The translations under genes and the position numbers were made by a program. From Eubacteriaceae bacterium (GTDB lineage Bacteria > Bacillota > Clostridia > Peptostreptococcales > Anaerovoracaceae), in assembly GCA_034927505.1 (NCBI GenBank), contig JAYFPY010000004.1, positions 13,735 through 77,734 of the forward strand: a stretch of DNA of 64,000 nt. Direction: 5' to 3'. Positions 13,042 through 33,418 of this stretch are shown in pieces (within the stretch, counting starts at the first letter, position 1; every line of letters begins with the position of its first letter). The notes under the pieces were generated by a model that was not told the origin of the DNA, did not search any database, and saw nothing but the letters and a program-made list of their open reading frames with translations.

Positions 13042-13302
13042 ATGGATTATGTATATATATTAGAATGCAGAGACGGCAGCCTTTACACCGGCTGGACCAC
13101 AGATATAGATGCCCGGATCAAAGCACATAATGAAGGCAAAGGCGCAAAATACACCCGAGGCCGGGGCCCGGTAAAGCTGGTCCACCTGGAGACATTCGAC
13201 AACAGATCGGATGCATTAAAAAGAGAGATGGCCATCAAAAAGCTGACCCGCTCACAGAAAGAAAGGCTTATTTCCAAGGGAAGCATTATTTCAAAAGAAT
13301 AA
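13042..13302 (+). CDS. GIY-YIG nuclease family protein (UPF0213/YhbQ-like)
   Basis: MDYVYILECRDGSLYTGWTTDIDARIKAHNEGKGAKYTRGRGPV is the GIY-YIG motif set. 86 aa. Confidence 0.85.
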   Translation: MDYVYILECRDGSLYTGWTTDIDARIKAHNEGKGAKYTRGRGPVKLVHLETFDNRSDALKREMAIKKLTRSQKERLISKGSIISKE

Positions 13303-15169
13303 ATTTATCTACGACCTTGCCTTTATCGTCAACAGTCCTGACCGTCAGTGTTTTCTCTGTCACCGAATATATCTGATATGTGCTTTCCTTAAGACTTATT
13401 TTTGCCGCGTAGTCCGGTTTGCTGCTGTTTTCGCTGTAATAGTGTGTAGGTTTGTAGCCGGAGTCTCCCATCATGTATGTGATGCCGGAGATTTTTTTCG
13501 TACGCATGTAGACGTGCTGGTGACCGCAGTCAACAAGATCGACGCCTGTCTTTTGAAAGATCGGCACCCAGTTCTTTCGTATCTGCTTGTATATGGGATT
13601 GCCGTCGTCGCTGGCCGGATAAGCCGGATGATGCATGAAGACTATCTTCCATTTTGCACTGCTCCCGGACAGATCTTTTTCCAGCCAACTGTTCACTTCT
13701 TTGATCATGGTCTTCCAATTTTTGTTGCCAATGTCTTCCCGTCTTTCATCTGCAAAAATATTGCTGTTTAGGGACACAAAATGACAGTCGCCCCGGTCGA
13801 AAGAATACACTTCCTCCGACAGATCTTTCGGCCCGTTTTCAGGCATAGCTACTATCTGTTTGTATGTGTACGGCGTTATTGACGTCTCGTGATTCCCCGG
13901 CGTGGTCATCACCGGGACCTCTGTGAATGTGCTCTGGGTTTCATCGAGGAAAGAATCCCAGTCGTCCATGTCCGCATTTTTTTCTACCATATCGCCCATC
14001 ATCAATGTGAATTTGATGTTCGGCTCGCTGCGGTAAGCCTTGCTCAGCATGTCGCCCCATTTTTTCATATCTCTGTCACGAAGGCTGTACTGGACATCGC
14101 CCAGAGACATGAATTCAAATGTGCTGCTGTCTTTGCCTCTATCGGCTCCGGTCTCAAATGTGCTTTTATCGCTCCACTTCCTGCCGGCTCCGACTTCATA
14201 GCAGTACTTTGTTCCCGGCTCAAGACCGGTCAACGTTACCTCGTATCTATAATATTCGCCCTCCCTTACAACAGTCATTTTTGCTTTTTCAGAATGATCA
14301 TAGTCTCCCCTGGCCCTGTAACTTTTTTTCGATGCATACCTGACGTACTGATCTGTTTTTTCTTCCAGCTTCCATGATATAGTCTGAGTCGTCTTTGTAT
14401 CTTTAGTCCATGACAGCAATATCTGCGATGGTTTTTCCGCCGGAGTGTCAGCCGCAAGCGCAGGGTCGCTGTGGCTGATATGTATGCCTCCTAAAATAAA
14501 TCCCACACACAAAACCGGGAACAGGATCATCATGAGCCAGTCTCTTTTTTTCAGTTTCAGCTTTCTCATGTATGTGCGTTTCGGCCTTGAACGGAATGCC
14601 CTGGCTTCCATAGAGGCCGACATGTCTCTGGCCCGGCCCATTGCTCCTGCCAGGATCGGCAGACACATTTTTGTATAGATCTTCAGTTTCTTTTTTACAG
14701 AAGTCTTTTTGATCTCCGTTCCGCGGAGCTGTATGCTGTAGTATATGTCCAGTGCTTCCTCTTTCAGCACAGGGAAAAAGTGGAGCCCTGTCATTACCAT
14801 GTAGGCGATTTCATAGGGCACCTTCCACTGGACCAGCGCCAGCAGGTAATCCCGCACATGGCCGGTCATCAGTATCAAAGCGGACATTATTATTATCAGC
14901 AGCCGTATGCACAGCATGCCGCCGATGATCCACCGGCCGAATATGGCCTGGAGGATGAACAGGAAAACGACCATTGCAAAAGCCGCTCGCGCCTGTTTTA
15001 TCTGCCGGGCCGGTTCGACTCCGCCTGACAGCAGCAGTATCACTGTAAATACAAGCAGACCTGCCAGCATGATCAGATCGTCCACCACCATTGCCGCCGT
15101 CGAGATGGCAATTATCATTACTATCTTTGCTCTGGGATCCAGTCTGTCCAATTTAAACATGACTGCCAC
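13286..15169 (-). CDS. ECF transporter T component (EcfT/CbiQ-like) fused to an extracytoplasmic purple-acid-phosphatase-like metallophosphoesterase
   Basis: Residues 1-~215 are polytopic and contain the EcfT coupling region GRARDMSASMEARAFRSRPKRT. An extra TM helix follows (DWLMMILFPVLCVGFILGGI). Next comes an FN3-like PAP N-domain (ILLSWTKDTKTTQTISW...GLEPGTKYCYEV). The last part carries all the metallophosphatase motifs: LGDVQY, MGDMVE, PGNHE, VFMHHP, CGHQHVY. Confidence 0.8.
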   Translation of the reverse strand: MAVMFKLDRLDPRAKIVMIIAISTAAMVVDDLIMLAGLLVFTVILLLSGGVEPARQIKQARAAFAMVVFLFILQAIFGRWIIGGMLCIRLLIIIMSALILMTGHVRDYLLALVQWKVPYEIAYMVMTGLHFFPVLKEEALDIYYSIQLRGTEIKKTSVKKKLKIYTKMCLPILAGAMGRARDMSASMEARAFRSRPKRTYMRKLKLKKRDWLMMILFPVLCVGFILGGIHISHSDPALAADTPAEKPSQILLSWTKDTKTTQTISWKLEEKTDQYVRYASKKSYRARGDYDHSEKAKMTVVREGEYYRYEVTLTGLEPGTKYCYEVGAGRKWSDKSTFETGADRGKDSSTFEFMSLGDVQYSLRDRDMKKWGDMLSKAYRSEPNIKFTLMMGDMVEKNADMDDWDSFLDETQSTFTEVPVMTTPGNHETSITPYTYKQIVAMPENGPKDLSEEVYSFDRGDCHFVSLNSNIFADERREDIGNKNWKTMIKEVNSWLEKDLSGSSAKWKIVFMHHPAYPASDDGNPIYKQIRKNWVPIFQKTGVDLVDCGHQHVYMRTKKISGITYMMGDSGYKPTHYYSENSSKPDYAAKISLKESTYQIYSVTEKTLTVRTVDDKGKVVDKFILLK

Positions 15170-15806
15170 CTTCGATTTTCACCCGATCTTTGGTATACCG
15201 TTCAACGAAATCTCTGTCATGGCTGATTATTATGATGCCGCAGCCCTGTTCCCGATTTATTTTTAAAAGGTATTCTCCCAGCTGCTCCCTGCGCATATAG
15301 TCCAGAGAAGCTGTCGGCTCATCCAGCATGAGCCAGTTTGGTTTCATAGCCAGGACCGACGCCAGGACCAGTCTTTGTTTTTCACCGTGAGAAAGGCTGA
15401 ACGGAAAATCATCTTCTCTTCCCGACAGATCGAAATAATCAAGATACTCTTTCGCCCTCGATTCTTTTTCTTCGTCTTCCAGCCCCAGATTTTCCAGTCC
15501 GTACATTATTTCTTCCCTGACCGAAGTGGAGAATATCTGCCGCGCCGGATTCTGCATCACGTACCCTATCCTCCTGCCTGTTTCTGCAAGTGACAGACTC
15601 TTTGAATCCTCTCCATCTATCAAAACAGATCCGGTTTCGGCTTTCAGTATCCCCATTATCACGCGGGACAGTGTGGTCTTGCCGCTGCCGTTCTTCCCCG
15701 TCAGTGCAGTCATCTGTCCGTCGACAAATTCGGCTGAAAAATCATACAGCACCGGCGCCGATTTTTTATCATATCTGAAAGTGATGTTATCGATCTTTAT
15801 GCTCAC
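15153..15806 (-). CDS. ABC/ECF ATPase component (EcfA-like, short)
   Basis: Walker A GKNGSGKTT, signature LSHGEKQRL, Walker B WLMLDEPT, H-loop IIISHD. Overlaps both neighbouring genes. Confidence 0.85.
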   Translation of the reverse strand: MSIKIDNITFRYDKKSAPVLYDFSAEFVDGQMTALTGKNGSGKTTLSRVIMGILKAETGSVLIDGEDSKSLSLAETGRRIGYVMQNPARQIFSTSVREEIMYGLENLGLEDEEKESRAKEYLDYFDLSGREDDFPFSLSHGEKQRLVLASVLAMKPNWLMLDEPTASLDYMRREQLGEYLLKINREQGCGIIIISHDRDFVERYTKDRVKIEGGSHV

Positions 15807-16464
15807 TGATCTTCCCTTCTTCCATCCACATTATGCGATCTGCAAAATCCAAGGATCTGTAGTCATGATCTACGATCAAAACAGTTTTGCCGCTGCTGCG
15901 CAATTTTATCAAAGTTTTTTTCATCATGATCTTGCCGTCTTCGTCAAGATGGGAAAAAGGTTCATCCATTATCAGCATCTCCGGATCCATCGTCAGAACA
16001 GAGCCGATGGCGACCAGCTGTTTCTGTCCGCCGGACAGCTTTGAAGGGCTCGTCAGCGCCATGTAGCTCAACCCTAAAAGTTCCATCACTTCATCGACCC
16101 GATGACGTATCTCCGTCGGCGGAAGACATATGTTCTCCGGCCCGAAAGCCAGCTCGTCTTCTACTGTAGCAGCGACGATCTGCATGTCCGGATCCTGCAT
16201 GACGAATCCGATCTTCTGTCCCAGTTCTGCAGGGCTCCTGCCGATCATATCCCTGCCAGCCATAGTCAGTTCACCTGTCAGTTCACCGTCGATACAGCAT
16301 GGTATGATCCCTGTCATCACACGGCAAAGAGTGCTCTTGCCGCATCCCGACAATCCTGCCAGGGCGGTGATGCTCTCCTTTTTCAAATCGAAAGACACGC
16401 CGTCAAGGACGTGCCGTTCCGGCGACTCGTCATATGCAAATGTGATGTTCTTTGCTGTGATCAT
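15787..16464 (-). CDS. ABC/ECF ATPase component (EcfA-like, short)
   Basis: Walker A GLSGCGKST, signature LSGGQKQLV, Walker B MLIMDEPF, H-loop LIVDHD. Confidence 0.85.
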   Translation of the reverse strand: MITAKNITFAYDESPERHVLDGVSFDLKKESITALAGLSGCGKSTLCRVMTGIIPCCIDGELTGELTMAGRDMIGRSPAELGQKIGFVMQDPDMQIVAATVEDELAFGPENICLPPTEIRHRVDEVMELLGLSYMALTSPSKLSGGQKQLVAIGSVLTMDPEMLIMDEPFSHLDEDGKIMMKKTLIKLRSSGKTVLIVDHDYRSLDFADRIMWMEEGKISEHKDR

Positions 16465-16465
16465 T

Positions 16466-18079
16466 TTACCTTTTCAGACCTTTCACTTTGGACAAGTTTC
16501 CATATATCTTTTTGCCATTCACCTTTTTGTAAGCTCTTGCTTTATAGTAATATCTCTTTCCTTTTTTGAGTTTCTTGTTCGTATATCTCCTCGTACTGCC
16601 TTTGGTGATCGTCTTTATTTTTTTGTATTTCCCCTTCTTTTTCGACGCCCTGTATATCTGATATCCGGAAGCTCCTTTGACCTTTTTCCATGAAATCTTT
16701 ATTGATCTTGAACCTGATTTTTTCAGTGATATTGATGGGGCTGCAGGCTTTGCATAAGGAACCGGGATCGATGCAGCTGCTGCGGTCGAATAATCTCCGT
16801 AAATCTTGCTTTGTCCTGCATCGACACAGGCTCTTATTCTGTATCGGTATGTCTTGCCGACAGCAGTATCAGTATCGGTCCAGCGGTTATCTTTAACTGT
16901 TGCCATTTTATTATATGGTCCTTTCTCTGTATCAGCCCGATATATTTCATATCCATCTGCATATTTCGCACTGCTCCATGAAAGTGAAACAGCTGAATTT
17001 TTCGCCGAAACACTATTGATGACCGGTGTGCCCGGCTTGACAAGATTTCCTGCAGGATCCTTCACCGATATGGAGGCAACATTATATATGATGCCTCCGT
17101 CTTCACCGACCAGCATGAGTCTGCCGGTCTGCTGCGTTGGAGTATCCGATCTGTCATTATATCCCCAGGCCAGAAATGAGGAACTCATTGTTTTATTATC
17201 CTTTACTGTTTCTTTCCCCGCAGCGTCTGTTACCGTTATCTTATTGCCGTCATCTTCAGCATAATTGATTATGCCCAGAGATCCTGAAACCCTGCTGAAC
17301 GGTATACCTTCGTATTTTCCGTTTTTGAATATCCCCATACGCAGTATGTCAGTCATCGTCAGACTTCTTCCTTCATTGTTTTCCGTTGATATCGCCTTTT
17401 TTTCTTCGCCTGCAATGATATTATCTACGCCTGCTATGAATCTGCAGTTGGTATCTTCGGTGACACTTGTCTGTCCGTACATCAGCACATTATCATCTCG
17501 CGTCAGTTTCTCTGCCGCAGCCGGGACCTGCCCCTGCTCTGAAGTCCACTTGTATCCGTTGGTCGTTTTGTACAGTGCCAGTATGGGCCCGCTCAGCTCT
17601 TCCCCTGTTTCACTGCCCGGAGCAAAATAATAACGGTTTGCAAAAATATTCGGCGCATGAAATGTGATAGAATAATCGTCCGCCCCGGTGATCTTCAGTT
17701 TATCTGCTGAGTCCCCATCGACCCCGACAGTTTCCAGCATGGTTTTTATATCCAGTCCCGCACCTCTGCTGAAATAATATATCGGGTCGCTGTTTATGTG
17801 GTGATCATACGAGGAAAATACTCTGTCGCCGACCCAGCAGCTGCCCAGGCCCAGGCCCTCTGCTGTCTTCTTTTCCTTTGCATCCGAAATCTGCTTTGCT
17901 GTGATATAAGCAAAGTCCTTTTGGAATCCGCATCCCTTTGTTATTCCCTTGCCGTCTATGATCAGTCCCAGCTCTTCATTTGATGTATCTGCTTTTGCCA
18001 TATCTGCATATGTCCCGGCCGGCATCATTGCCGCTGCCAGACATAATATCAGTACAGCGATCATCATTCTTTTTTTCAT
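16466..18079 (-). CDS. secreted surface protein: SUOX-like modules + FN3 + basic FN3-like tail
   Basis: Signal peptide MKKRMMIAVLILCLAAAMMPAGTYA. Module motifs GAGLDIKTML, GADDYSI, PILALYK. FN3 domain (VSLSWSSAKYADGYEIYRA). Lys-rich C-terminus ISWKKVKGASGYQIYRASKKKGKYKK...KKGKRYYYKARAYKKVNGKKIYG. Confidence 0.75.
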   Translation of the reverse strand: MKKRMMIAVLILCLAAAMMPAGTYADMAKADTSNEELGLIIDGKGITKGCGFQKDFAYITAKQISDAKEKKTAEGLGLGSCWVGDRVFSSYDHHINSDPIYYFSRGAGLDIKTMLETVGVDGDSADKLKITGADDYSITFHAPNIFANRYYFAPGSETGEELSGPILALYKTTNGYKWTSEQGQVPAAAEKLTRDDNVLMYGQTSVTEDTNCRFIAGVDNIIAGEEKKAISTENNEGRSLTMTDILRMGIFKNGKYEGIPFSRVSGSLGIINYAEDDGNKITVTDAAGKETVKDNKTMSSSFLAWGYNDRSDTPTQQTGRLMLVGEDGGIIYNVASISVKDPAGNLVKPGTPVINSVSAKNSAVSLSWSSAKYADGYEIYRADTEKGPYNKMATVKDNRWTDTDTAVGKTYRYRIRACVDAGQSKIYGDYSTAAAASIPVPYAKPAAPSISLKKSGSRSIKISWKKVKGASGYQIYRASKKKGKYKKIKTITKGSTRRYTNKKLKKGKRYYYKARAYKKVNGKKIYGNLSKVKGLKR

Positions 18080-18082
18080 GTC

Positions 18083-19693
18083 CTACCTCTTTATGCGTTT
18101 TACACTGGACCATGATCCATATTTTTTGCTGCCTTTTACAGTTCTGTATGCACGGACCTTGAAATAGTATTTCTTTCCTTTTTTAAGCTTGCTGATGGTT
18201 TTCGATTTTGCGCTGTCTTTCTTGACATATACCGTTTTTCTGCTTTTAGTAATTTTTTTATTGGTTCCGTATCTGATCTGGTATCCGTATGCACCGCTTA
18301 CCTTTTTCCATCTCAGTAATGCACTTTTCCTGCCCTTCTTTTTCAGAGATGTGATCGAACTCTTGGAAAGCTGCGGTGTTTTTGATACGACGTTCCCGGT
18401 GCTGCTTTCCAGTGAAACAAAATTCTCTTTTTTAACGGCACTGATTTTATATGAATACTTTGTTCCTGTCAGCAGACTTTTGTCAATATATGAAGTAGAT
18501 GTGGTCTCTGCGATCTTGCTGTATCCGCCCTTGCCTGCCGCACGATAAACTGTATATCCGTCAGCTCCTGCCGATGCGCTCCATTTCAAAGATATACTGT
18601 TATATCTGCTGCCGGTCACTGATGTATTCGCAGGCGCTGACGGTGCTGTTGTTAGTTTCTCCGTATTCCAGATCACCTTTCCCGGTGTGAACAAAGCATA
18701 CTGCGATGTCTGTTCTGAAGGCGTATCCGTACTGTCTGAGAAGCCCCATGCCAGGAATGAAACCTTGATATCAGATCCTGTTATTACTGTCGTCTTCGAT
18801 GATGCCGCATCTGTCACAGCGATCTCGTTCCCCGTCACATTCATTTTCTCCATGACTTTTGTCAAAGGCAGGCCCGTGACATTATAACTGTTTCCTCCAT
18901 AAGAAAATTTGCTCTTATATATTCCCGCACGCAGGATCTCCTGTATATTCATATTCGAATATGAATCGTTCCCGTTTTTGAATATGCCGGTCTGGTCATC
19001 TACAATAATTGTGTCAACATACTTTCCATACAAACAATTGTTGTCTTCATCATACTTCTTCTGACCGAATACAAAGACATTCTCTCCTGCCGGCAGTCTT
19101 GTCACATCTCCCGGATCCTGCACGTCAGCAAAAGTCGACCCCATGCTGTCGGCCCTATAAAGAGCGATCAGCGGCACCCTGGTATTCTCACTTGCTGCTG
19201 TTGTATTCGGATGTGCAAAATAATATCTGTTTCCAAACACATTCTCTTCACCGGTGCTGCGAAGTATTCCGCTGTAACCGTCAGATGAATAATATGTCAA
19301 CTCCTTTACTTTGCCGGTATCTGTGCCCAGAGCAGCGATCATTTTTTTTACATCTATACCGCTTACTTTGCTGCGATGATAGTGCCCTGTTACTCCGTTT
19401 ATTTCACCATGAGGTTCGTGGGAGGAATAAATGGTATTTTCTGTCCAGCTTTCACCTATGTCATATCCGGAAACATTTTTGTTTGTTTTTATCGTTTCCA
19501 TTTCATCCTGTGTCAAATAGAAAACATTCCCCTGGAATCCTTCCTGCCCGGATATCCCTGATCCGCTGACTATCAGCCCCGGTGTCTCCGGCTCATCGGC
19601 AGCGTATCCTGTGCCGAAACTCATCGCCGCGACTACTGCCGCCGCAATCACTATCGCTAACGCTTTATTGATCATTCTTTTTAAAGACTTCAT
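18083..19693 (-). CDS. secreted surface protein: SUOX-like modules + FN3 + basic FN3-like tail
   Basis: Start at MKSLKRMINKALAIVIAAAVV (GGAG SD; the track start at 19735 lacks one). Motifs VSGIDVKKMI, SSDGYSG, PLIALYRA. C-terminus LRWKKVSGAYGYQIRYGTNKK...KKGKKYYFKVRAYRTVKGSKKYG. Confidence 0.75.
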   Translation of the reverse strand: MKSLKRMINKALAIVIAAAVVAAMSFGTGYAADEPETPGLIVSGSGISGQEGFQGNVFYLTQDEMETIKTNKNVSGYDIGESWTENTIYSSHEPHGEINGVTGHYHRSKVSGIDVKKMIAALGTDTGKVKELTYYSSDGYSGILRSTGEENVFGNRYYFAHPNTTAASENTRVPLIALYRADSMGSTFADVQDPGDVTRLPAGENVFVFGQKKYDEDNNCLYGKYVDTIIVDDQTGIFKNGNDSYSNMNIQEILRAGIYKSKFSYGGNSYNVTGLPLTKVMEKMNVTGNEIAVTDAASSKTTVITGSDIKVSFLAWGFSDSTDTPSEQTSQYALFTPGKVIWNTEKLTTAPSAPANTSVTGSRYNSISLKWSASAGADGYTVYRAAGKGGYSKIAETTSTSYIDKSLLTGTKYSYKISAVKKENFVSLESSTGNVVSKTPQLSKSSITSLKKKGRKSALLRWKKVSGAYGYQIRYGTNKKITKSRKTVYVKKDSAKSKTISKLKKGKKYYFKVRAYRTVKGSKKYGSWSSVKRIKR

Positions 19694-19766
19694 AATATTA
19701 TCTCCATAAGACCCTAATAGCCGATGAATTATCATCGGCTATCAGAGCAAATATACTGCTTTTTTA

Positions 19767-21431
19767 TTATTTCTTTTTTGTTTTGAAGGATTTTGTCTTT
19801 GACCATGAACTGTAGAATGTCTTTCCTTCTATCTTCTTATATGATCTGACTTTGAAATAATATTTTTTGTTTTTCTTTAGTTTCTTAACTGTCTTGGATA
19901 CTGTTTTTCCGCTCTTTATAGTGACAGTTTTTTTGCTCTTTGTTATCTTTTTATTTCTACCGTATCGGACCTGATATCCTGTTACAGATGATGCCTTTTT
20001 CCATCTCAGCTTTGCGCTTCTCTTCTTTACCTTTACAGCTTTTTTAACTGACGGTGCTGCAACATTTCCAACGGTTATGATGGCCTTTGCATTTTCTATC
20101 AGTGTAGGTTCTTTGCCGGATATCGGAGTGTAATCACTATCGCCGTCACTGGCTTCGACTTTTGCACTTGTCGTATCGACCAGGACTGAATGATCGTAAT
20201 TAACAGTTTTCCTGTTATAGTCCCATATGTTGCTTGATCTCTTCGACTGCTGATAGCTGTAAGCTACAAAATAGTTGTTTATAGAAGCAGTTATATCCTG
20301 CATGCTTCCGTCTGCCTTGATCACATATGCCTTCTGTCCCGCAGGCACAGTCAGCAGATCCTTCAGCCACTGTCCGTTGTATCTTACATACATAGGTTTG
20401 TTGTATCCCCAGTATTTGTTCGGACTTGCAGTCGGCTGTGCAGGTACCTGTGCAGAACCGTTTATCAGTTCCGATCTGAGCAGGCTTTTTGCTGTTCCGT
20501 TTATGTTCGTTTTAAAATACGGTGTCTCTGTCCAGTAGAATTCTACTGTCTGATCCTCTGCCTTTTCAGCAGCTTTTACAGATACGGAAACTCCGTTGAA
20601 TCCTCTGCTCTGTATTTTGCTCGACAGTTTTGCATATGCCAGATCCACTCTCGGTCTTGCAGGCCATCTCATTCCTGTCGGTACTCCGTATATATCTTTA
20701 TCGTCTGCTACCTGCATGCCGTAATCATCATCACTCATGCTCTTTTCGGTATATCCGCTGTCGCCTTTAAGAGTTTTACCGCTTTTACTGATCACAACTC
20801 CCATGAAATTTTTAAGTACTGATGAGTTGGCTGAGTTGGTCTGTCTGTAAGCTCTCAGCAGCGACGGTTCTACAAATGTTGTGAAATCATAGAACTGTGT
20901 ATCATTTACATTGTTTGCATCCGGCTTGTCATAAGTCATCTTGCACTGATATCCTATAATAGTCTCTTTCGGCGTGCTGCTCGTATCCGTCAAACTTTTG
21001 ACAGTATCTTTATAGCTGTCCTGAGTTGCATGGAATGCATCCTCTTCAGCGTACTGGATCATCCAGTCTTCATCGACCGTTACATCTTTCAGATCTGATA
21101 TCATATTTGAAAGCTTTGCACCTTTGATGGCTGCTGTTTCGCCTTCGCCATGATTGCCATAGTGATAGCCGACCTGATCGCCATAAGCTTTGATCTCGTC
21201 AAGTGTGTAGTAGTAGATCTTATCTGTGTCGCCGGTAACTGTTCCGTTATTGTCGGCATCAACTGCAATATAGAATACTGCATTTTTGATATTGGTCCCT
21301 GCTGTTGCCGGTGATTTCCCCGATGCTGCATTTGCTGTAGCAGTCTGCATAAAACCAAAACATGACATAACCATTGCCAGTGTCAATATGACGGCAATGA
21401 TTTTATTTCTTTTTGAACAAGTGATATCCAT
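19767..21431 (-). CDS. secreted surface protein with basic FN3-like tail
   Basis: A canonical signal peptide MDITCSKRNKIIAVILTLAMVMSCFGFMQTATANA begins at M41 of the track ORF, whose GTG at 21551 overlaps the upstream stop, so the start is uncertain. C-terminus LRWKKASSVTGYQVRYGRNKK...KKNKKYYFKVRSYKKIEGKTFY. Confidence 0.7.
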   Translation of the reverse strand: MDITCSKRNKIIAVILTLAMVMSCFGFMQTATANAASGKSPATAGTNIKNAVFYIAVDADNNGTVTGDTDKIYYYTLDEIKAYGDQVGYHYGNHGEGETAAIKGAKLSNMISDLKDVTVDEDWMIQYAEEDAFHATQDSYKDTVKSLTDTSSTPKETIIGYQCKMTYDKPDANNVNDTQFYDFTTFVEPSLLRAYRQTNSANSSVLKNFMGVVISKSGKTLKGDSGYTEKSMSDDDYGMQVADDKDIYGVPTGMRWPARPRVDLAYAKLSSKIQSRGFNGVSVSVKAAEKAEDQTVEFYWTETPYFKTNINGTAKSLLRSELINGSAQVPAQPTASPNKYWGYNKPMYVRYNGQWLKDLLTVPAGQKAYVIKADGSMQDITASINNYFVAYSYQQSKRSSNIWDYNRKTVNYDHSVLVDTTSAKVEASDGDSDYTPISGKEPTLIENAKAIITVGNVAAPSVKKAVKVKKRSAKLRWKKASSVTGYQVRYGRNKKITKSKKTVTIKSGKTVSKTVKKLKKNKKYYFKVRSYKKIEGKTFYSSWSKTKSFKTKKK

Positions 21432-21547
21432 CTCTTTTTGCACGGTCTCCCGTGCTCTCCTTTCCGTTATACAAAAGTAAAAATAACCATCCTGTTCGAT
21501 TCTATCAGAAAACTGCATTTTATGTCGTTGTTTGAGCAACACTTTAC

Positions 21548-22105
21548 TCACTTTTTACAAATTATTTTCACTAAATACTTCGTGCTCCTGTTTCCGTAGG
21601 TGTCTTTGGCAAAAATTACCTGCAGCGGACCGCTGCCGCCCTTGCTGTACTCGGTCAATGTCTTTCCATTTTTTGAATAAGCTGCAATGATATTATTCTT
21701 TTCTTTGATTTCTTTCTGTGATGCTGCAGAAGAGTAGCCGTCACCGGCTGTAAAAATAAATGTTTTATACTCTTTCACAAGATTCGGATCGGAATCATTC
21801 AACAGATCCATCACTGAAACTCCTGTAAATGTACCTTTTTCATCTGCTTTTGAGGAAGATTCAAGGTCGGCATATACATTTTCGCTTTCCAGTTTCCTGA
21901 TTTCTTTCATGGTATATTTTTTTATCGTTTTTGTTTTCCCTGCAGAGTTTTCGCCAGACACAGTCAGCACATTTTTCCCACCGCCGATACTGCTGCTGTT
22001 GTTGGTCATATTAACAGCAGCGGTAATAATGATCACCGCTGTCAGCACTGCAAAAAATATGATGACGGCTTTATTCCCCAGTTTCAGTTTTCTTCTCTTT
22101 TCCAC
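21548..22105 (-). CDS. membrane-anchored single SUOX/YedY-like module protein
   Basis: N-terminal TM helix (AVIIFFAVLTAVIIITAAV), then FTGVSVMDLL, AGDGYSS, IIAAYSKNGKTL, GPLQVIF, KYLVKI. This is the pattern of the Oxidored_molyb fold. Confidence 0.65.
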   Translation of the reverse strand: MEKRRKLKLGNKAVIIFFAVLTAVIIITAAVNMTNNSSSIGGGKNVLTVSGENSAGKTKTIKKYTMKEIRKLESENVYADLESSSKADEKGTFTGVSVMDLLNDSDPNLVKEYKTFIFTAGDGYSSAASQKEIKEKNNIIAAYSKNGKTLTEYSKGGSGPLQVIFAKDTYGNRSTKYLVKIICKK

Positions 22106-22667
22106 TGTATCCTGCAGCCCTCCTTTTTATCAAATGATACTTGTCCATTACCTTCAGCAATTCCCATGCAATGAGTCCGCCTGCTCCACCCGAAAGAAGA
22201 GCTACAGCTAAAATCAATACCAGATACACGCCCGGTGCCTGAAAAAATACAATATTTACGCAGGCAGTACCTGTCACATTTGCAACTGCCCCGGCCAGTA
22301 CTGCACAGCCGCGACAGCATACTCTATGGCCTGTGATCAGCAATGCCAGATCCATAGCGATACCCGGTGCAATATAAGTAAACAGACTCATGATACCATG
22401 CGAACCAACTACGCCTGTGATCAAAACCAGTATGGCCTGCACGATCGATATGATCGTTGCCGTACCCGGCTTCTTGACGATGCCATATCCTATTACTAGC
22501 CACATCATATAAAGACCGCCTGCCAATGCTCCGCTGGGGATCATCAACGGTCCGGTCACCAGATGCGCAAGAGGCACCACTGCCGGTTTTATTGCTATCC
22601 CGACCGCCGCCATGATCGCCATTACAACCAGATCATATACTGAAAATTTTTGCAGGACTTTGCTCAT
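22071..22667 (-). CDS. ECF transporter S component-like membrane protein (YkoE-like)
   Basis: 198 aa, about 6 TM helices. FSVYDLVVMAIMAAVGIAIKP...GIVKKPGTATIISIVQAIL... resembles ECF substrate-capture (S) proteins of the YkoE type. The specific assignment is from memory only. Confidence 0.65.
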   Translation of the reverse strand: MSKVLQKFSVYDLVVMAIMAAVGIAIKPAVVPLAHLVTGPLMIPSGALAGGLYMMWLVIGYGIVKKPGTATIISIVQAILVLITGVVGSHGIMSLFTYIAPGIAMDLALLITGHRVCCRGCAVLAGAVANVTGTACVNIVFFQAPGVYLVLILAVALLSGGAGGLIAWELLKVMDKYHLIKRRAAGYSGKEKKTETGE

Positions 22668-23263
22668 TTATTTATTACCTCTATTTTTTCGACATATCCG
22701 GCCCAGCCCTGCATGTTATAATCTTTTGTTTCTCTGCTGTCGTATTTTTCCTGCCCGTACACCAGCCGTAGCGGTGTTCCGTCATTTGGATCAAAATCTT
22801 TATTGTTTCCCAGCTTTGTACCTTTTTTTACTATAGCTATCATTGGAGATACCTTTTCGCCCTTTGATGCTGTGCTGTCTTTGAAATAATATAGATCATA
22901 CAGTTTTTCGACCTCATACTCTCTGGTATATCCATCGCTGCATGAGATTTTTACAGTTTCATATTTTTTGAATCCGGCATCCTCCAGCAGCTTTTTCAGG
23001 TCTACACCCGTATATGTTTCCACTGCTCTGTCATTTCCGGTTTTCTTGTTACGGCCGCTGTATATGACTTTTTCAGTTCCGACTTTTTTCAAAGTATCGG
23101 TGGAGTAATATGCTCCCGTATCTGACCCTTCCTCGGTCACCGTCAACACCGTATCTGAACTTTTTTCTATGCTTCCGACATTCGGTTCGCCCTGGCTGCT
23201 GCCGCACGATGCCATAGTGAATACGATCACAAGACATATTATAACTGCAAATATTTTTTTCAT
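22664..23263 (-). CDS. lipoprotein with a single SUOX/YedY-like module
   Basis: Lipobox TMASC, then YTGVDLKKLL, CSDGYTR, MIAIVKKGTKL, TPLRLVYG, WAGYVEKIEV. Confidence 0.7.
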   Translation of the reverse strand: MKKIFAVIICLVIVFTMASCGSSQGEPNVGSIEKSSDTVLTVTEEGSDTGAYYSTDTLKKVGTEKVIYSGRNKKTGNDRAVETYTGVDLKKLLEDAGFKKYETVKISCSDGYTREYEVEKLYDLYYFKDSTASKGEKVSPMIAIVKKGTKLGNNKDFDPNDGTPLRLVYGQEKYDSRETKDYNMQGWAGYVEKIEVINK

Positions 23264-23275
23264 TTTTCCTCCCGT

Positions 23276-25354
23276 TTACTTGCTTACACTTATTTCTTTG
23301 ACATTCTTTACCCATCCGGATACCTGATTTTCCACTATCAGTCGCAGAGGGCCGAAACCGTTGCTCCCGTTGTATCCTTCAGATTTCTTTGTCGGCACCA
23401 GAGGAACTCCGTCTATACTGTAAGCTAAAATAATGTCCCTATGCTGACCTTCCTGATATCTGCTGTCTATTCCATTCCAGACATCATCGACCGGTATTTC
23501 TTTTTTATATCCATCCTGTCCGATCACAGTGATCCCTGCAGGTGTCTTTATTCCCTTTTTCAGATTTTTAGTGATCAACTTTTTCAAGACTGCCCCTTGA
23601 TATCCATTGCTTCCTGCCGATGCGGCAAAAGACTGTCTAACGGTATTTTTACCGGTCAATGCTTCGATTTCACTAAGTTTGTATGTTTTGCCTTCCACTG
23701 CAGATCCGCTTATTTTCAATTTCGTATCAAGGTACTTTCTGTAGTCTCCCTTGCTGTGAGTCCATTGTCCTTTATGTATGCCTACGTTCATGCTGTCCAG
23801 CTCATTTAGTTTGACAACTCCTGCCAGACATACAGAACCTTCTTTATCGGAAAGTGCTTTTCCGTTTTTACGTGTAGCAATTATGTAATTTCCATCTTTC
23901 AACGAGTTTAGTTTCAATTTTATTGTTTCATTATCATTTTCAAATGTTACTGAATATGCATCCACCGTCATGCCTGCATCCTGCAGCAGGTCGTAAACAG
24001 CGACTCCTGTATAGCCCTTTACAGTCTTTGTAATCTCCGGCATATTTTCCAATTCAGCCACGGAGTAAGTTATGCTGGTTTGTATCCCTTTGCCCTTTAT
24101 TGTTATCGTTTTCTCTGCATTGGGATTGTCGCTGAGTTTTTTCCCTGCATAGATATCGATAGAAATGCATTCCTTCTTTGTTGTTCCTTTTTTTATATCC
24201 TTTTTAGCAGGCAGTATAGCGTATATCCTGTCCTTCTCAGTAGGCTCTCCATCTATACTGTAAGCCAGGGCCGGCATCGTGCCCGTAATGGTTTTGCCGC
24301 TTTTTTTCGTAGTATAATCTTCACTGTCGCCCGACAGATTTCTCAGGTATTCCATGTCTATGGTCTCGCTGCTGCCGTCAGCAAAAGAAAATTTTACTTT
24401 TCCTTCCTGTGCGGCCAGATCTGCTTTCTCTTTGATATATCCCCACAGGTATGCACCTTCATAAAAGTTTTTTTCACCATAGTAATTCCTGATGCAGTTT
24501 CCCGTTTTTTTGGCAGCATACTTTTCTACATCTGCTATGGTACACCATGAACTGCTGAGTCTTTTGTTATTTGCATCTTTATCATAGACACTGATTTTTA
24601 CAGTCTTTTCTTCAGATGCTTTTTTGCTGTGCTGTGTATAATTCTTTTTTTTGCCGACGATTATTTTGCTTACCCATTTGACATTGTCCGGTGCATTATA
24701 CTGCTGTGGATCTGTCTGCCCTATTGTAAGTCTGACCGGCCCGCCGATATTGTCTGCATCTTTGACATATCCATCTTTTTCCGTCATTTTCTTGCCGATT
24801 TTCTGACTGCCTGTCGGGCCGACCAGCGGCACATTGTCGCTTCCAAAGGACAATAAAACCGGGACTCTTTTCCCTCTTGTTTTTTTTGCATCCATAGTGC
24901 TGTAATAATTGTACTTGTTTTTTTTGATTTCGCTGATCAAAATAGTTTTGGAATATCCATCTGTAGATACGATCGTAACAGGAGTATTTTTATCCAGATT
25001 TTTACTCATTCCCTGATCTACAAGAAATTCATACAATCTTGCTCCTGTAAAAGTTCTCTTTGAAAAAACTCCGCCGCTGGTCAAAAGGCTGTACTTTCCC
25101 GAGTATCCAATGTCGCTGTTTTCATATGCGGTTTCCTCAATATCTTTTACTGAACATATTTTTTCTTTGCCCATTCCTGTACCTGTAACAGTCACACTGC
25201 TGTACAGGTAATTCCCTGTTCCGTATTTCGACCCCTCGTCATCTGCATGATCTGTATGTGCCGCCTTTTTGTTCATGCATCCGCACATGCAGAGCAGCAT
25301 TATTATCAGTACAGTGATGACCGCAATGGCTGCCGCTTTCCTTTGTGTTTTCAT
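23276..25354 (-). CDS. lipoprotein with 3-4 tandem SUOX/YedY-like modules
   Basis: Lipobox-like LLCMCGC. Repeated motif sets: FTGARLYEFL/STDGYSK/GPVRLTIG/VKWVSKIIV; YTGVAVYDLL; YQGAVLKKLI/GQDGYKK/ILAYSIDGVPL/GPLRLIV/GWVKNVKEISV. Confidence 0.75.
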   Translation of the reverse strand: MKTQRKAAAIAVITVLIIMLLCMCGCMNKKAAHTDHADDEGSKYGTGNYLYSSVTVTGTGMGKEKICSVKDIEETAYENSDIGYSGKYSLLTSGGVFSKRTFTGARLYEFLVDQGMSKNLDKNTPVTIVSTDGYSKTILISEIKKNKYNYYSTMDAKKTRGKRVPVLLSFGSDNVPLVGPTGSQKIGKKMTEKDGYVKDADNIGGPVRLTIGQTDPQQYNAPDNVKWVSKIIVGKKKNYTQHSKKASEEKTVKISVYDKDANNKRLSSSWCTIADVEKYAAKKTGNCIRNYYGEKNFYEGAYLWGYIKEKADLAAQEGKVKFSFADGSSETIDMEYLRNLSGDSEDYTTKKSGKTITGTMPALAYSIDGEPTEKDRIYAILPAKKDIKKGTTKKECISIDIYAGKKLSDNPNAEKTITIKGKGIQTSITYSVAELENMPEITKTVKGYTGVAVYDLLQDAGMTVDAYSVTFENDNETIKLKLNSLKDGNYIIATRKNGKALSDKEGSVCLAGVVKLNELDSMNVGIHKGQWTHSKGDYRKYLDTKLKISGSAVEGKTYKLSEIEALTGKNTVRQSFAASAGSNGYQGAVLKKLITKNLKKGIKTPAGITVIGQDGYKKEIPVDDVWNGIDSRYQEGQHRDIILAYSIDGVPLVPTKKSEGYNGSNGFGPLRLIVENQVSGWVKNVKEISVSK

Positions 25355-25368
25355 TTTTCACCCGTGAT

Positions 25369-26055
25369 TTATTTATTCAGTAGAATATACTTGTCTTTTT
25401 TAAAATCCAATATTCCTTCCCGCCTCATTTTGTTGAGTTCATTGGATAAAGCGGATCGGTTCACTGACAGATAGTTTGCCAGCTGATTCTGTGTCATCAT
25501 AATATGAAAACTGCCGCCGCCGTGTTTCTGCGACATTATCCTCAAATATGTCAGGACCCTGTCCCTCATACCTGCATGTGACAAAACATCTATTTTGTAT
25601 AATTTTTTAATGCTTTCATTCCCCAGTATATTTATTATGTTGCGCATTATGATGTTGCGGTATGAACACGTAAGAAGTCTGTCTCCGTTTATGGCCAAAA
25701 TGACCGCTTCTTCAGAAGCTGCCACAAAGGTCACCGGCGAGATCTTGCTTTCAGTTGAAACATTGTCCAAACTTATGATTTCACCCTGTTCATGCATATC
25801 CACAAGATGTATTTCACCTTCCATATGGAATTTCTCACTCCGTATACTGCCGTTGATCACTATTCCTATATCGGTTTCTTCTTCACCTTCATGAATAATG
25901 ATCGCATCTCTTTTATATTCTTCAAATGTAGGTGCGAGCTCATCACAAAGAATGCTGCACTCCGCTTCAGTAAGACCTTTGAACAGCGGTGCCTGCCTCA
26001 AATATCTTATTAAAGATTTTTTACTAATTTCTTTTTCCATAACGTAATGAATCAT
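25369..26055 (-). CDS. Crp/Fnr family transcriptional regulator
   Basis: cNMP-binding-like N-domain (LFKGLTEAECSILCDEL...IIHEGEEETDIGIVINGSI) and a C-terminal HTH (TQNQLANYLSVNRSALSNELNKMRREGIL). AAGGAG SD before the ATG at 26055. Confidence 0.85.
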   Translation of the reverse strand: MIHYVMEKEISKKSLIRYLRQAPLFKGLTEAECSILCDELAPTFEEYKRDAIIIHEGEEETDIGIVINGSIRSEKFHMEGEIHLVDMHEQGEIISLDNVSTESKISPVTFVAASEEAVILAINGDRLLTCSYRNIIMRNIINILGNESIKKLYKIDVLSHAGMRDRVLTYLRIMSQKHGGGSFHIMMTQNQLANYLSVNRSALSNELNKMRREGILDFKKDKYILLNK

Positions 26056-26130
26056 CAAACTCCTTAATGCTTCATTATACCTCAGTTTCTCGGGAACGAA
26101 TGTTGTTTGAACAATATTTTTGACAATAGT

Positions 26131-26619
26131 TTACTTTTTGAACTGTATTTTTACGATCATTTTAGTCCAATCACTGGATTTTCCGTCCGGTATCAGCAGC
26201 CTAAGCGGTTTTTCAGAATCATTCAGCGCTTTTTCCCCATTGGCAACCGACAGTATTATCGAATCATGATTTGTTAAATAACTATTGTCCAAAACCGTTG
26301 TATACCCGTCTGAAGCAATGAAAATGATTTCGTCATAGTCGGTCTGTCCATGGCCATATTGTTCCAGAAAGGTATCCAGTGTGGGTCCGACAGCCGTAAC
26401 AGTTTTTTTCGTGGATTCCACTTCCCCCGAAGCTTTTGTACATTTCAGGTCCGCAAGTTGATCCGGAGTGATTTTAAAAGCTTTGTCTTTTATCCCCGTT
26501 ATCTGTATCTCTGTTTTGCCGTAGTCGGAAATATCAGCTGTGACCTCTGCACTGCAGCCTGCTGCAATACAGGACAAGATCATGATAAGGATCAGCAATA
26601 CCGCTTTTTGTTTTCTCAT
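26131..26619 (-). CDS. lipoprotein with a single SUOX/YedY-like module
   Basis: Lipobox IAAGC, then AVGPTLDTFL, ASDGYTT, IILSVANGEKAL, KPLRLLIP, DWTKMIVKIQF. Confidence 0.7.
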   Translation of the reverse strand: MRKQKAVLLILIMILSCIAAGCSAEVTADISDYGKTEIQITGIKDKAFKITPDQLADLKCTKASGEVESTKKTVTAVGPTLDTFLEQYGHGQTDYDEIIFIASDGYTTVLDNSYLTNHDSIILSVANGEKALNDSEKPLRLLIPDGKSSDWTKMIVKIQFKK

Positions 26620-26936
26620 TTGTTTTTCCCTTCGACTTTCACGTAGTATTTGCCGGTATCCGGATCCTGATATACAACTCCTTTTTCCTGAAGGCCGCTG
26701 TTGTTTTCTACTTCTTCTACCTGTTTGTCGTTCAGGTTTTCTGCATTATTGAGTTCTTCAACGTTCTGTACAGATGTTACGTCAACGTTCCAATGCATTA
26801 TCAGCGCCAGCATTATACCTACCGCCAAAATAAGCATGGCATCTACCAGATTTGATACTCCATCCATCGGATTTACATCTTCCTGGCTTTTTCTGGATGC
26901 GGTCGACAATCTTCCGCTGCCAAATCGTCTAAGCAT
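26616..26936 (-). CDS. ExbD/TolR-like (DUF2149-like) single-pass membrane protein
   Basis: Start at ATG 26936 (GGGAGGAG SD, 8-nt overlap with the upstream gene). Basic N-terminus, then EDVNPMDGVSNLVDAMLILAVGIMLALI with an Asp at the start of the TM helix, then a small periplasmic-type C-domain. Confidence 0.7.
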   Translation of the reverse strand: MLRRFGSGRLSTASRKSQEDVNPMDGVSNLVDAMLILAVGIMLALIMHWNVDVTSVQNVEELNNAENLNDKQVEEVENNSGLQEKGVVYQDPDTGKYYVKVEGKNK

Positions 26937-27570
26937 CTTTCTCCTCCCGGTTTTCTTCTTCAAGTACGCATTCCATCAAGGTCTCAAGCACTGACATATA
27001 ATTACTGTACCAGGTTTTTCTGATCGATGAAATCAGCAGTGCTATAGCTGCTGCTGCGAGACCTGCGATCGTTGTATCAAATGCCGTCAGCAGTGACTGC
27101 GACAATGTATTCGTATCACCCTGTCCCAGCGCAATGATCCCCGGCCCGAGCGGGATCAATGTACCTAAAAGACCCAGCATCGGTCCTATTTTAGCAATAA
27201 AATCTGTTACCTTGACACGTCTGTCATATATGGCCTGCTCTTCGCTCAAAAGCCTTATTGCCAGACTCTCCCGCATTGTACTGCTCAAATTACTATGCCT
27301 TGTCAATTCCAGCAGTGCAGCCTTTTGTCGTTTCAACAGGTTTCCTTCTTTGATCGTTTGGTTTATTTCTTTTGACTCATCTCTGATGTCATCCACCATA
27401 TGCGGCATGTCAGCCTTCAAATATCTCCTTTCGGTAAATACCTCCGCTATGATCGTTCCTATCAGCACCACTGTTGCTGCCAGTAAAATTATCAACAATA
27501 TTATTACCGGCCATCTCAGTCCTTCCGAGACACTTCTCAATACATCACTAAAACTACTTAATGAAAACAT
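26929..27570 (-). CDS. MotA/TolQ/ExbB proton-channel family protein
   Basis: 213 aa. N-terminal TM helix, cytoplasmic helical insert, then the family signature PMLGLLGTLIPLGPGIIALG...LLTAFDTTIAGLAAAAIALLI. Confidence 0.8.
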   Translation of the reverse strand: MFSLSSFSDVLRSVSEGLRWPVIILLIILLAATVVLIGTIIAEVFTERRYLKADMPHMVDDIRDESKEINQTIKEGNLLKRQKAALLELTRHSNLSSTMRESLAIRLLSEEQAIYDRRVKVTDFIAKIGPMLGLLGTLIPLGPGIIALGQGDTNTLSQSLLTAFDTTIAGLAAAAIALLISSIRKTWYSNYMSVLETLMECVLEEENREEKDA

Positions 27571-27580
27571 TCTTTTTTTA

Positions 27581-29059: not shown

Positions 29060-29088
29060 TTGTTCTTTCTGTTCATAAAACCCATAAA

Positions 29089-33331: not shown

Positions 33332-33418
33332 CTTTTCTCCCTTCATTTTACAATCTGTTTTGCAAATCTATCAATAATTCTTAAGACTTAATCAGACTGA
33401 CATTATACTTCATCATTC

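Follow-up and report, generated by a model that had tools for sequence, protein, structure and literature searches.

Why should the scaffold subunit of a bacterial importer carry a phosphatase? The question is raised by a gene of Eubacteriaceae bacterium, located in a stretch of 64,000 nucleotides of contig JAYFPY010000004.1, hereafter the window, to whose positions all gene coordinates refer. The list of open reading frames (ORFs) of the window contains a gene on the reverse strand (13286..15169, GTG start) whose product of 627 amino acids (aa) joins the T component of an energy-coupling factor (ECF) transporter to a metallophosphoesterase resembling purple acid phosphatases (PAPs). An earlier note on this DNA had proposed that the phosphatase lies outside the cell and dephosphorylates vitamins at the mouth of the transporter. 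Our analysis agrees with the architecture and with the predicted location, and it leads to a different class of cargo. That is, the ECF family in question belongs to the molybdenum/tungsten (Mo/W)-cofactor regulon, and we see about an even chance that the gene encodes a transporter-tethered phosphoesterase within an importer of this regulon, the cargo of which is most likely a pterin of the molybdenum cofactor (Moco)/tungsten cofactor (Tuco) family.

The tripartite ORF described in the earlier note exists and carries three Pfam domains, all of them far over their gathering cut-offs: CbiQ (PF02361) at residues 7-200 (E 5.6e-19; 69.1 bits as compared to a cut-off of 25; profile positions 5-215 of 216), Pur_ac_phosph_N (PF16656) at residues 247-340 (E 3.4e-18) and Metallophos (PF00149) at residues 357-554 (E 3.6e-15; 57.3 bits, cut-off 21.5). 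The motif strings highlighted in that note are likewise each at their place in the protein, namely GRARDMSASMEARAFRS at position 178, GDVQY at 357, GDMVE at 392, GNHE at 425, MHHP at 512 and GHQH at 549. The AlphaFold2 (AF2) model (mean pLDDT 89.4, pTM 0.79) begins with helices, which are followed by an all-beta and then by an alpha/beta domain; a 15-residue acidic, Pro/Ala-rich linker joins the last transmembrane helix (TMH5) to the FN3-like all-beta domain. At NCBI the same protein is deposited with a start at Met4, giving 624 aa (entry P0001), its name there being simply 'CbiQ family ECF transporter T component'.

The earlier note had pointed to the region around 14480-14560, where an assembly or frameshift artefact might have joined two genes. 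Such an artefact is ruled out: this stretch encodes TMH5 and is in frame in 55 homologues and in 23 species. A search of 5.8 billion proteins yielded 73 relatives and, counted as protein clusters, ~55 full-length homologues of the fusion with 37-62% identity, which come from many independent assemblies and keep the frame through the junction. Scanning one genome per GTDB species revealed the fusion in 23 species representatives from Anaerovoracaceae, Eubacteriaceae and other Clostridia, among them the cultured isolate Zhenpiania hominis BX12 (L012). Since independent assemblies and a cultured isolate share the same frame, the fusion is not an artefact. As to the phyletic spread of the CbiQ-Metallophos combination, the fused loci form one clade in a rough neighbour-joining tree of T domains. 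When 1.84 billion representatives at 50% identity were searched exhaustively, the full-length architecture turned up in three or four clusters (P0002, P0029, P0046 and a fragment), the remaining hundreds of matches being unfused T components or PAP-like domains of other secreted proteins. Because the fusion collapses to so few clusters, it is one lineage-specific event.

On which side of the membrane is the enzyme placed? Residues 7-221 align to EcfT of L. brevis (4HUQ_T/4HZU_T, chain positions 30-271 of 280; phmmer E ~5e-16), and the alignment takes in the helix that lies C-terminal of the Arg-rich coupling region; the latter region aligns with RAEDLSTAMEARGY of L. brevis EcfT. The canonical layout of EcfT comprises five transmembrane (TM) helices and three coupling helices (PMC4820897). 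The AF2 helices of the fusion protein (12-28, 32-48, 53-76, 80-101, 105-114, 119-148, 158-194 and 208-232) are predicted to follow this layout, in which the coupling helices precede the last TM helix. Among the 55 homologues R149-G150 is invariant and R190 is conserved in at least 90%, in agreement with the conserved Arg residues by which the two long coupling helices contact EcfA/A' at their C-termini, and two EcfA-type ATPase genes, ecfA and ecfA', overlap each other and the T gene. Therefore, the helix at 211-230, which the earlier note had regarded as an addition to the T component, is not an extra one: as it aligns to the last helix of the solved L. brevis EcfT, and as the canonical protein has five TM helices, the segment ~208-232 is the ordinary TMH5. 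The odd number of TM helices means that the C-terminus of EcfT already lies outside, with no helix added. Hydropathy and Lys/Arg counts point in the same direction, with ten Lys/Arg in residues 193-212 just before TMH5 and the acidic linker after it. These features, and the signal or lipoprotein peptides of stand-alone homologues, lend good support to the prediction that the phosphoesterase domain is extracytoplasmic, as had been proposed. The T component scores 38.1 bits with the NCBIfam equivalog model for cobalt CbiQ (TIGR02454; cut-off 111.8), and a Pfam scan of the cluster revealed neither CbiM nor CbiN.

The best Foldseek matches of the enzyme part are plant PAPs (sweet potato 1XZW, kidney bean 4DSY/1KBP, the wheat phytase 6GJA and lupin PPD1 3ZK4; E ~1e-23, TM-score ~0.73 on target), followed by PhoD and mammalian PAPs, and the N-terminal part of the model matches EcfT structures. 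All five motif blocks of PF00149 (D-x-H/Q, GD, GNH[D/E], H, GHxH) are present, namely GDVQ (D358, Q360), GD (D393), GNHE (N426, H427), HHP (H513) and GHQH (H550, H552). Accordingly, the claim that every metal-binding motif is intact holds for these blocks. It does not hold for the residue that defines a PAP. PAPs have seven invariant metal ligands, among them a Tyr that gives rise to the purple Fe(III) charge-transfer band (PMC2267794). Six of these seven positions are kept here (D358, D393, N426, H513, H550 and H552). The Tyr of GDxxY is missing, the motif reading GDMVE in the fusion protein and E, D, V or N occupying the position across the family. Moreover, motif I is G-D-x-Q with an invariant Gln, whereas canonical metallophosphoesterases have D-x-H; two stand-alone PAP relatives have G-D-V-H, from which it follows that Gln360 occupies the position of the D-x-H His. 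The two-domain PAP fold with its FN3-like N domain thus stands, and assignment as a bona fide PAP is ruled out because the Tyr ligand is missing, with Gln at the D-x-H position in addition. Judged by its motifs, the domain is best called a non-purple PAP-like metallophosphoesterase with a plant-PAP-like fold; an animal "non-purple" PAP relative with His in place of the Tyr has been described (PMC2553084). The motifs are conserved in 42/55 fusion homologues and degenerate in the other 13. The degenerate branch is represented at L004:10001-11674, L025:702-2474 and L026:10001-11566; it keeps the fused domain, the S/SUOX-fold/ecfAA' context and a Crp regulator, and looks like a pseudo-enzyme retained on the transporter scaffold.

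To what extent is the enzyme tied to the transporter? We annotated 80 related GTDB loci with BLAST and family hidden Markov models (HMMs) built from the loci. A core consisting of an S component, a small protein with the sulfite oxidase (SUOX) fold, ecfA, ecfA' and T is present in at least 57 of them, the hosts being Clostridia, Peptococcaceae, Syntrophomonadaceae, Thermoleophilia and Dehalococcoidia. A homologue of S occurs in 62 loci, the five genes (S-OM-A-A'-T) are contiguous in most, and the small SUOX-fold protein adjoins S in most loci and is fused to it in several. In the window, too, the S gene (22071-22667) lies on the same strand as ecfAA'T, as in dedicated (group I) ECF systems. 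PAP is fused to T in 23/80 loci and encoded by a separate gene of the cluster in 11/80, in the latter case with intact motifs and with signal or lipoprotein peptides. In 23/80 loci, counted by BLAST with the true NPP part and by the family HMM, the gene adjoining S encodes a lipoprotein of the NPP type (PF01663), that is, of the type I phosphodiesterase/nucleotide pyrophosphatase family, which is non-homologous to PAP. Altogether, at least one extracytoplasmic phosphoesterase is found within 10 kb in 56/80 loci. PAP and NPP are nearly exclusive, the latter occurring in 1/34 PAP loci versus 22/46 others (Fisher p = 4e-6, shared ancestry uncorrected). In three Thermoleophilia loci (L039:73-1884(-), L060:1411-3183(-) and L037:4199-8707(-)) an S component with six TM helices, a seventh TM helix and an NPP domain share one frame. 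This arrangement looks like a second, independent tether of a phosphoesterase, bearing in mind that these genomes are GC-rich and that an internal start is possible.

Hence, the functional tie of phosphatase and ECF transporter that the earlier note had suggested is borne out, as PAP recurs as a separate gene in 11 loci and NPP takes its place in others. As far as can be judged from the gene arrangements, the attachment of PAP and NPP to different subunits provides the strongest evidence for a phosphoester role in transport: two unrelated phosphoesterases at two membrane subunits would mean that phosphoester chemistry, or phosphoryl/oxyanion recognition, belongs to the transporter's job. Among the other recurrent neighbours, a MobB/FeS-like gene, usually right after T, is present in 20/80 loci and NTPase_1 in 22/80; an APH-like kinase and DUF364 also recur, and a Crp homologue adjoins T in 17/80. 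A trio of genes for a MotA/ExbB-like protein, DUF2149 and a 506-aa bitopic protein accompanies PAP in 15/34 loci (9/23 with the fusion, 6/11 with the separate gene) as compared to 1/46 loci devoid of PAP. By analogy, this trio hints at proton-motive-force coupling of a surface step.

Which regulon does the family belong to? Rfam models were scanned over the window and 23 related loci, 8 of them fused and 15 unfused, and the part of the window from 12 to 39 kb was searched at E<=1 as well. The window contains no riboswitch at the gathering score, nor does its 12-39 kb part at E<=1. Of the 15 unfused loci, however, eight (L079, L074, L083, L077, L072, L046, L057 and L041) are preceded on the operon strand by the Moco/Tuco riboswitch RF01055, which scores 52-77 bits there (gathering score 36). 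When three of these riboswitches were used to build a covariance model, it recovered the same eight and no others across 83 sources. Riboswitches for TPP (thiamine diphosphate), FMN (flavin mononucleotide), cobalamin or other vitamins were found neither in the window nor in the 23 loci. Particularly informative is L041 from a member of the Lachnospiraceae, whose T domain is 52% identical to that of the window and nests inside the fused clade. Here the riboswitch directly precedes the genes SUOX-lipoprotein - S - SUOX-small - A - A' - T - NTPase_1, the first of which is a homologue of the 199-aa SUOX-fold lipoprotein of the window. In L072 the riboswitch lies directly 5' of a stand-alone PAP gene and two SUOX-fold genes. 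In L079 the ECF genes are found between a TupA/ModA-like binding protein and a TupB/C-like permease plus TOBE-ATPase, all after the riboswitch, and in L074 a MOT1-family molybdate transporter is encoded downstream of the ECF cluster.

Mo/W transport, the synthesis of Moco and the enzymes that use it are all under the control of this riboswitch class (PMC2408646), and DUF364 has been connected with operons for molybdate/tungstate transport, a flavin or pterin derivative being its proposed target (PMC2954201; bioRxiv 10.1101/2024.03.05.583561). Because of RF01055 at eight loci and the MobB/FeS, DUF364, SUOX-fold, TupABC-like and MOT1 genes, the ECF family belongs to the Mo/W-cofactor regulon. 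In the fused clade, regulation probably runs through a Crp/Fnr protein, which is encoded in or next to the cluster in 8/23 fused loci and in the window. The riboswitches come in a short form of 118-121 nt (L074:3475-3595, L072:9691-9808 and L077:182-300) and a long form of 135-166 nt (L079, L083, L046, L057 and L041), the one of L074 missing one hairpin of that of L079; judged by their sequences, the two forms may represent the two classes distinguished by Regulski et al., of which the one for the tungsten cofactor lacks P3 and the one for the molybdenum cofactor contains it. Just downstream of the ECF cluster of L041, a Lachnospiraceae metagenome-assembled genome (MAG), we also observed tandem ROOL RNAs (RF03087; 11874-12400 and 12452-13086, reverse strand; 258 and 219 bits).

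The proteins accompanying the S component provide an indication of the ligand. NCBI names the small partner (21548-22105) 'molybdopterin-dependent oxidoreductase'. The Mo-coordinating Cys of a distant YedY-like relative (LDCVEGW) aligns with its near-invariant Ser83. Foldseek searches with the AF2 model (pLDDT 81, N-terminal TM anchor) returned as top matches PruR of Agrobacterium/Vibrio (7KOS, 7KOM and 7KOU; E ~1e-6, TM-score 0.67-0.73 on target), and next the Moco domains of sulfite oxidase and YedY. By sequence, neither the small partner nor the S component matched the PDB, and S matched no NCBIfam model. PruR binds pterins in the periplasm; its SUOX fold is degenerate and truncated, and the Cys that would be a ligand of Mo is missing (PMC11194511). 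The small partner has the truncated fold, the extracytoplasmic placement and the missing Cys in common with it. At the former Cys position, where PruR carries a Pro-Trp motif (PMC11194511), it has Ser. Since the Pro-Trp motif is missing, we speak of resemblance to PruR, not of membership. According to the models, the SUOX-fold partners are more likely binding proteins than enzymes, and by analogy to PruR a pterin-type ligand is a reasonable guess.

Taken together, these observations lead to a working scheme in which we infer enzymatic activity, direction of transport and substrate from the genetic context. Surface SUOX-fold proteins would capture a scarce phosphorylated or nucleotide-linked micronutrient and hand it inward, where the phosphoesterase at the transporter mouth would cut off the phosphate or nucleotide moiety. 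The S component would bind the product and topple on the T scaffold, driven by EcfAA', and in the cytoplasm the MobB/FeS-like protein, NTPase_1 and, in relatives, the APH-like kinase would re-activate the imported core. By analogy, the most likely candidates for the cargo are molybdopterin, its GMP (guanosine monophosphate) or CMP (cytidine monophosphate) dinucleotides, a precursor or a breakdown product, and the phosphoesterase probably processes a phosphorylated or nucleotide-linked pterin. In support of this scheme, the lupin enzyme PPD1 (3ZK4) is among the structural matches of the phosphoesterase; PPD1 is a plant PAP that hydrolyses diphosphonucleotides. More tentatively, and with a probability that we place clearly below even, the cluster could be a system, the first in prokaryotes, for taking up and salvaging molybdopterin-type cofactors (Moco/Tuco or their dinucleotide or precursor forms), in which a relay of cysteine-less SUOX-fold pterin binders feeds the ECF importer. 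In such a system the scaffold, or elsewhere the S component, would carry the pyrophosphatase/phosphatase that strips off the nucleotide or phosphate, the MobB/FeS-like protein and the kinases would rebuild the cofactor, and the Moco/Tuco riboswitch would repress the genes when cofactor is plentiful.

Several observations weigh against a pterin importer with a hydrolytic step. No riboswitch was found in the window or in the 8 fused loci scanned, where a Crp/Fnr regulator takes its place, and the link of the fused clade to Mo/W rests on its relatedness to the riboswitch-bearing loci and on the MobB/FeS, DUF364 and SUOX-fold genes that both have in common. The Pfam family of the S component is named for cobalt transport and gives no pointer to pterins in particular, the SUOX-fold proteins have Ser at a position occupied by Trp in PruR and by Cys in true enzymes, and Moco is chemically labile, which makes its scavenging non-trivial. 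Further, no phosphoesterase is encoded within 10 kb in 24/80 related loci, and the proteins P0046-P0058 (loci L004, L025 and L026) are devoid of the Asp, Asn and His ligands, having GN and GENE/GDYE motifs and no GHxH. This ligand-free branch, taken with the 24 phosphoesterase-free loci, implies that hydrolysis is accessory and not obligatory, and the fact that the branch keeps the domain indicates that catalysis is not its sole role there, a structural or binding role being added.

The latter point bears on the alternative that fares best, namely that the cargo is the oxyanion itself. The system would then be a new tungstate/molybdate importer, in which the dimetal centre of PAP or NPP binds the oxyanion as an analogue of phosphate and passes it to S with no hydrolysis, the SUOX-fold proteins also handling the metal. 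Much of the regulon evidence would fit as well, as Moco/Tuco riboswitches classically control Mo/W transporters (PMC2408646), DUF364 goes with mod/tup operons, and TupABC-like and MOT1 genes are located in the same operons. In addition, tungstate binds to the PAP active site as an inhibitor (PMC2267794), and PAP and NPP are unrelated folds that have only phosphoryl/oxyanion chemistry in common and nevertheless interchange. However, an importer of this type would be redundant beside the dedicated oxyanion transporters of these very operons, the protein adjacent to S resembles a pterin binder, and the presence of APH-like kinase and MobB-like genes speaks for an organic cargo that undergoes re-activation in the cell. 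The ligand-less branch of the fusion could not hold an oxyanion in this manner, and the known metal S components, CbiM and NikM, are of a different family. All in all, we consider direct capture of the oxyanion unlikely.

The model of the earlier note, in which TPP, thiamine monophosphate (TMP), FMN, pyridoxal phosphate (PLP) or nicotinamide mononucleotide (NMN) is dephosphorylated at the mouth and the free vitamin is delivered to S, keeps its logic but loses its candidates. The tethered phosphoesterase is real, its outside location is predicted and it is genetically coupled to the transporter. We take the S family, PF09819, to include the thiamine-related YkoE, and the fusion of L003/L022 has no S gene nearby, as is the case in shared-module ECF systems. 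The proposed substrates are not borne out, though, by what surrounds the genes: the sole riboswitch class detected, at eight loci, is Moco/Tuco and not a vitamin class, and, in place of vitamin kinases or salvage enzymes, the accessory genes encode MobB/FeS, DUF364 and SUOX-fold proteins. We therefore regard a vitamin phosphate as a quite improbable cargo.

Improbable to a similar degree is traffic in the opposite direction, in which the ECF transporter would export a nucleotide-linked cofactor that is trimmed by the phosphoesterase and loaded into Sec-exported SUOX-fold redox enzymes at the surface. Many surface SUOX-fold proteins do have Sec or lipoprotein signals and not Tat signals, Moco riboswitches also precede genes of Moco-using enzymes, and flavinylation in Listeria, in which an ECF system has been implicated, provides a precedent for extracytosolic cofactor trafficking (PMC9973259). 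Yet the SUOX-fold proteins have no Mo-coordinating Cys (Ser83 in its place) and share their truncation with PruR, which is not an enzyme, import is the better match for the cytoplasmic kinase and MobB-like genes, and ECF transporters are described as importers in almost every case studied. Like this export and assembly model, a merely anchoring function is less likely than the pterin scheme: that EcfT serves as a coincidental anchor for a general secreted phosphatase or nuclease-like enzyme, or that the domain is a structural lid or docking platform, could draw on the pst-phoU operon that the close relative L001 has a short way downstream, the Exo_endo_phos gene after the fusion in L003, the persistence of the catalytically dead branch and the frequency of PAP-like domains in large surface proteins unrelated to ECF, but it is the least probable of all, given that PAP recurs as a separate gene in 11 related ECF clusters, that NPP replaces it beside or apparently fused to S, that a Moco riboswitch lies directly 5' of the stand-alone PAP in L072 and that no Pho-type context is conserved.

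The fusion gene sits in a cluster of ~22 kb, the features of which are compiled in the table.

Features of the fusion gene and its cluster (window positions)
Feature	Position	Strand	Evidence
ECF T component plus PAP-like metallophosphoesterase (predicted extracytoplasmic)	13286..15169	-	ORF, three Pfam domains, 55 homologues, AF2 pLDDT 89.4
EcfT domain, aa 1-232	14474..15169	-	four N-terminal TM helices, three coupling helices (R149, R190), TMH5 aa ~208-232
FN3-like PAP N-terminal domain, aa 247-340	14150..14431	-	PF16656 E 3.4e-18; all-beta 248-339 in model
Calcineurin-like metallophosphoesterase catalytic domain, aa 351-627	13289..14119	-	PF00149, motifs, kidney bean PAP alignment, Foldseek
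ecfA' ATPase	15153..15806	-	ABC_tran E 8.8e-31; ECF_ATPase models E 5e-53; 3' end overlaps fusion start
ecfA ATPase	15787..16464	-	ABC_tran E 5.8e-26; ECF_ATPase_1 E 1.2e-57; overlaps ecfA'
Three paralogous secreted proteins (537, 550 and 594 aa) with very basic FN3 C-termini	16466..21551	-	fn3 matches
Membrane-anchored small SUOX-fold (PruR-like) protein	21548..22105	-	Oxidored_molyb E 3.8e-8; overlaps S gene
ECF S component, PF09819, 198 aa	22071..22667	-	ABC_cobalt E 1.7e-16
SUOX-fold lipoprotein (199 aa) and 692-aa protein with at least 3 SUOX-fold repeats	22664..25354	-	Oxidored_molyb, own HMM
Crp/Fnr-family regulator	25369..26058	-	cNMP_binding and HTH_Crp_2
SUOX-fold lipoprotein (162 aa)	26131..26619	-	Oxidored_molyb E 3e-6; own HMM E 1.5e-9
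DUF2149 small membrane protein, MotA/ExbB-like protein (213 aa) and 506-aa bitopic protein	26616..29101	-	MotA_ExbB E 4e-12
1399-aa surface protein with N-terminal SUOX-fold, Big_3 and FN3	29147..33346	-	own HMM at aa 39-137, E 1.9e-4
NTPase_1	33718-34335	+	Pfam; family HMM E 1.5e-43
DUF364/DUF4213	34308-35039	+	Pfam
MobB/FeS-like	35040-35786	-	NCBIfam PRK14494 E 2e-34; family HMM E 2e-95

Judged by the gene overlaps, the fusion gene is translationally coupled to ecfA/ecfA'. Genes for Moco biosynthesis were sought elsewhere in the window and none was found at 40-58 kb. Homologues of the three FN3 secreted proteins are located between S and ecfA in many fused loci. The four large secreted proteins of the window (16466-21551 and 29147-33346, reverse strand) have near-identical, extremely Lys-rich FN3-like ends (...KKGKKYYFKVRAY...KIYG.WS..K), which may be a shared module for anchoring to the cell wall or surface. 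The DUF2149 ORF of the window was recognised by eye, and the cluster representative from related loci matches PF09919; the MotA/ExbB-DUF2149-bitopic trio sits here in an uptake cluster of a monoderm, and the search results for DUF2149 in the literature list studies of Hmu haem uptake in Porphyromonas and of iron limitation in Bacteroidetes. At its 3' end the fusion gene converges with a gene for a small GIY-YIG protein (13042-13302, forward strand; 17-nt overlap), after which an aldo-keto reductase with a 4Fe-4S dicluster domain is encoded (11576-13003, reverse strand); this gene pair also follows the fusion in L001/L007 and L008. Among the relatives on long contigs L001 is the closest; a few genes downstream of its fusion gene lies a pstSCAB-phoU operon for phosphate uptake (14178-18282), which is not present at the corresponding position of the window. 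In one Clostridiales MAG (L003/L022:11770-12525) a gene of the Exo_endo_phos family and then a polysaccharide deacetylase gene come directly after the fusion gene, no gene for an S component or a SUOX-fold protein lying within 10 kb of it in this MAG.

In agreement with the earlier note, which knew of no such architecture, the literature searched contains no description of an ECF T-phosphoesterase fusion, of an ECF transporter under a Moco riboswitch or of bacterial Moco uptake, and it reports dietary Moco uptake for C. elegans only. The parts, that is ECF transporter, metallophosphoesterase and SUOX fold, are known and their combination is new; the likely role would be new biology if confirmed. 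ECF transporters are regarded as minimal importers operating with no extracytoplasmic partners, whereas here the scaffold subunit includes a predicted catalytic domain, the S component is joined by a family of extracytoplasmic proteins of the binding type, and the family as a whole is part of the Mo/W-cofactor regulon. If the cargo is a Mo/W pterin, sharing and scavenging of Moco among bacteria becomes directly testable, and anaerobic communities of the gut and of digesters would prove to have a hidden economy of cofactors. If it is tungstate or molybdate, the system would represent a fourth, ECF-type class of Mo/W transporter employing phosphatase folds as oxyanion receptors. For either cargo, defined proteins and a cultured host, Zhenpiania hominis BX12, are available for experiments.

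How does the system compare with those already known? With canonical EcfT/CbiQ proteins (L. brevis 4HUQ/4HZU, L. delbrueckii ECF-FolT2) the homology extends over the whole EcfT including the last TM helix, and the five TM and three coupling helices, the conserved Arg residues and the position of the gene directly after two EcfA genes are common to both. In contrast to canonical EcfT, the fusion T has an enzyme of ~390 residues, predicted to be extracytoplasmic, after TMH5, its TM3-TM4 region is shorter than in L. brevis EcfT, as evident from alignment gaps, and it belongs to a separate T subfamily, which occurs together with a PF09819 S component and a SUOX-fold partner. With the plant PAPs (1KBP/4DSY, 1XZW and 3ZK4) the enzyme has the FN3-like N domain and the calcineurin-like catalytic domain in common, at an identity of only ~20%. 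It differs by the absent Tyr and by GDxQ (His in some relatives) versus GDxG in motif I, so that the M1 site is like that of ordinary metallophosphoesterases, and its membrane tether is a transporter subunit.

The small SUOX-fold partner is, like PruR, a small extracytoplasmic protein with a truncated sulfite-oxidase-type fold and no Mo-coordinating Cys. At 19-25% identity, it deviates from PruR by the conserved Ser in place of Pro-Trp. Whereas PruR signals to a c-di-GMP enzyme, the gene of the small partner accompanies that of an ECF S component and is sometimes fused to it, and the SUOX-fold domain is multiplied on large surface proteins of the same cluster. The flavin ECF system of Listeria monocytogenes likewise serves extracytoplasmic cofactor-dependent proteins encoded nearby; it is not reported to have a phosphoesterase fusion, handles flavin and not Mo/W, and differs in direction and partners (PMC9973259).

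Similar in its logic is a pathway of Haemophilus influenzae, in which NadN and e(P4) convert NAD and NMN to nicotinamide riboside for uptake by PnuC. In both cases a phosphorylated or nucleotide-linked cofactor would be cleaved outside, its uncharged core imported and re-activated inside. The NadN and e(P4) enzymes are free periplasmic proteins or lipoproteins working with a non-ECF transporter, whereas the enzyme described here is covalently joined to the transporter scaffold and belongs to a family that is part of the Mo/W-cofactor regulon.

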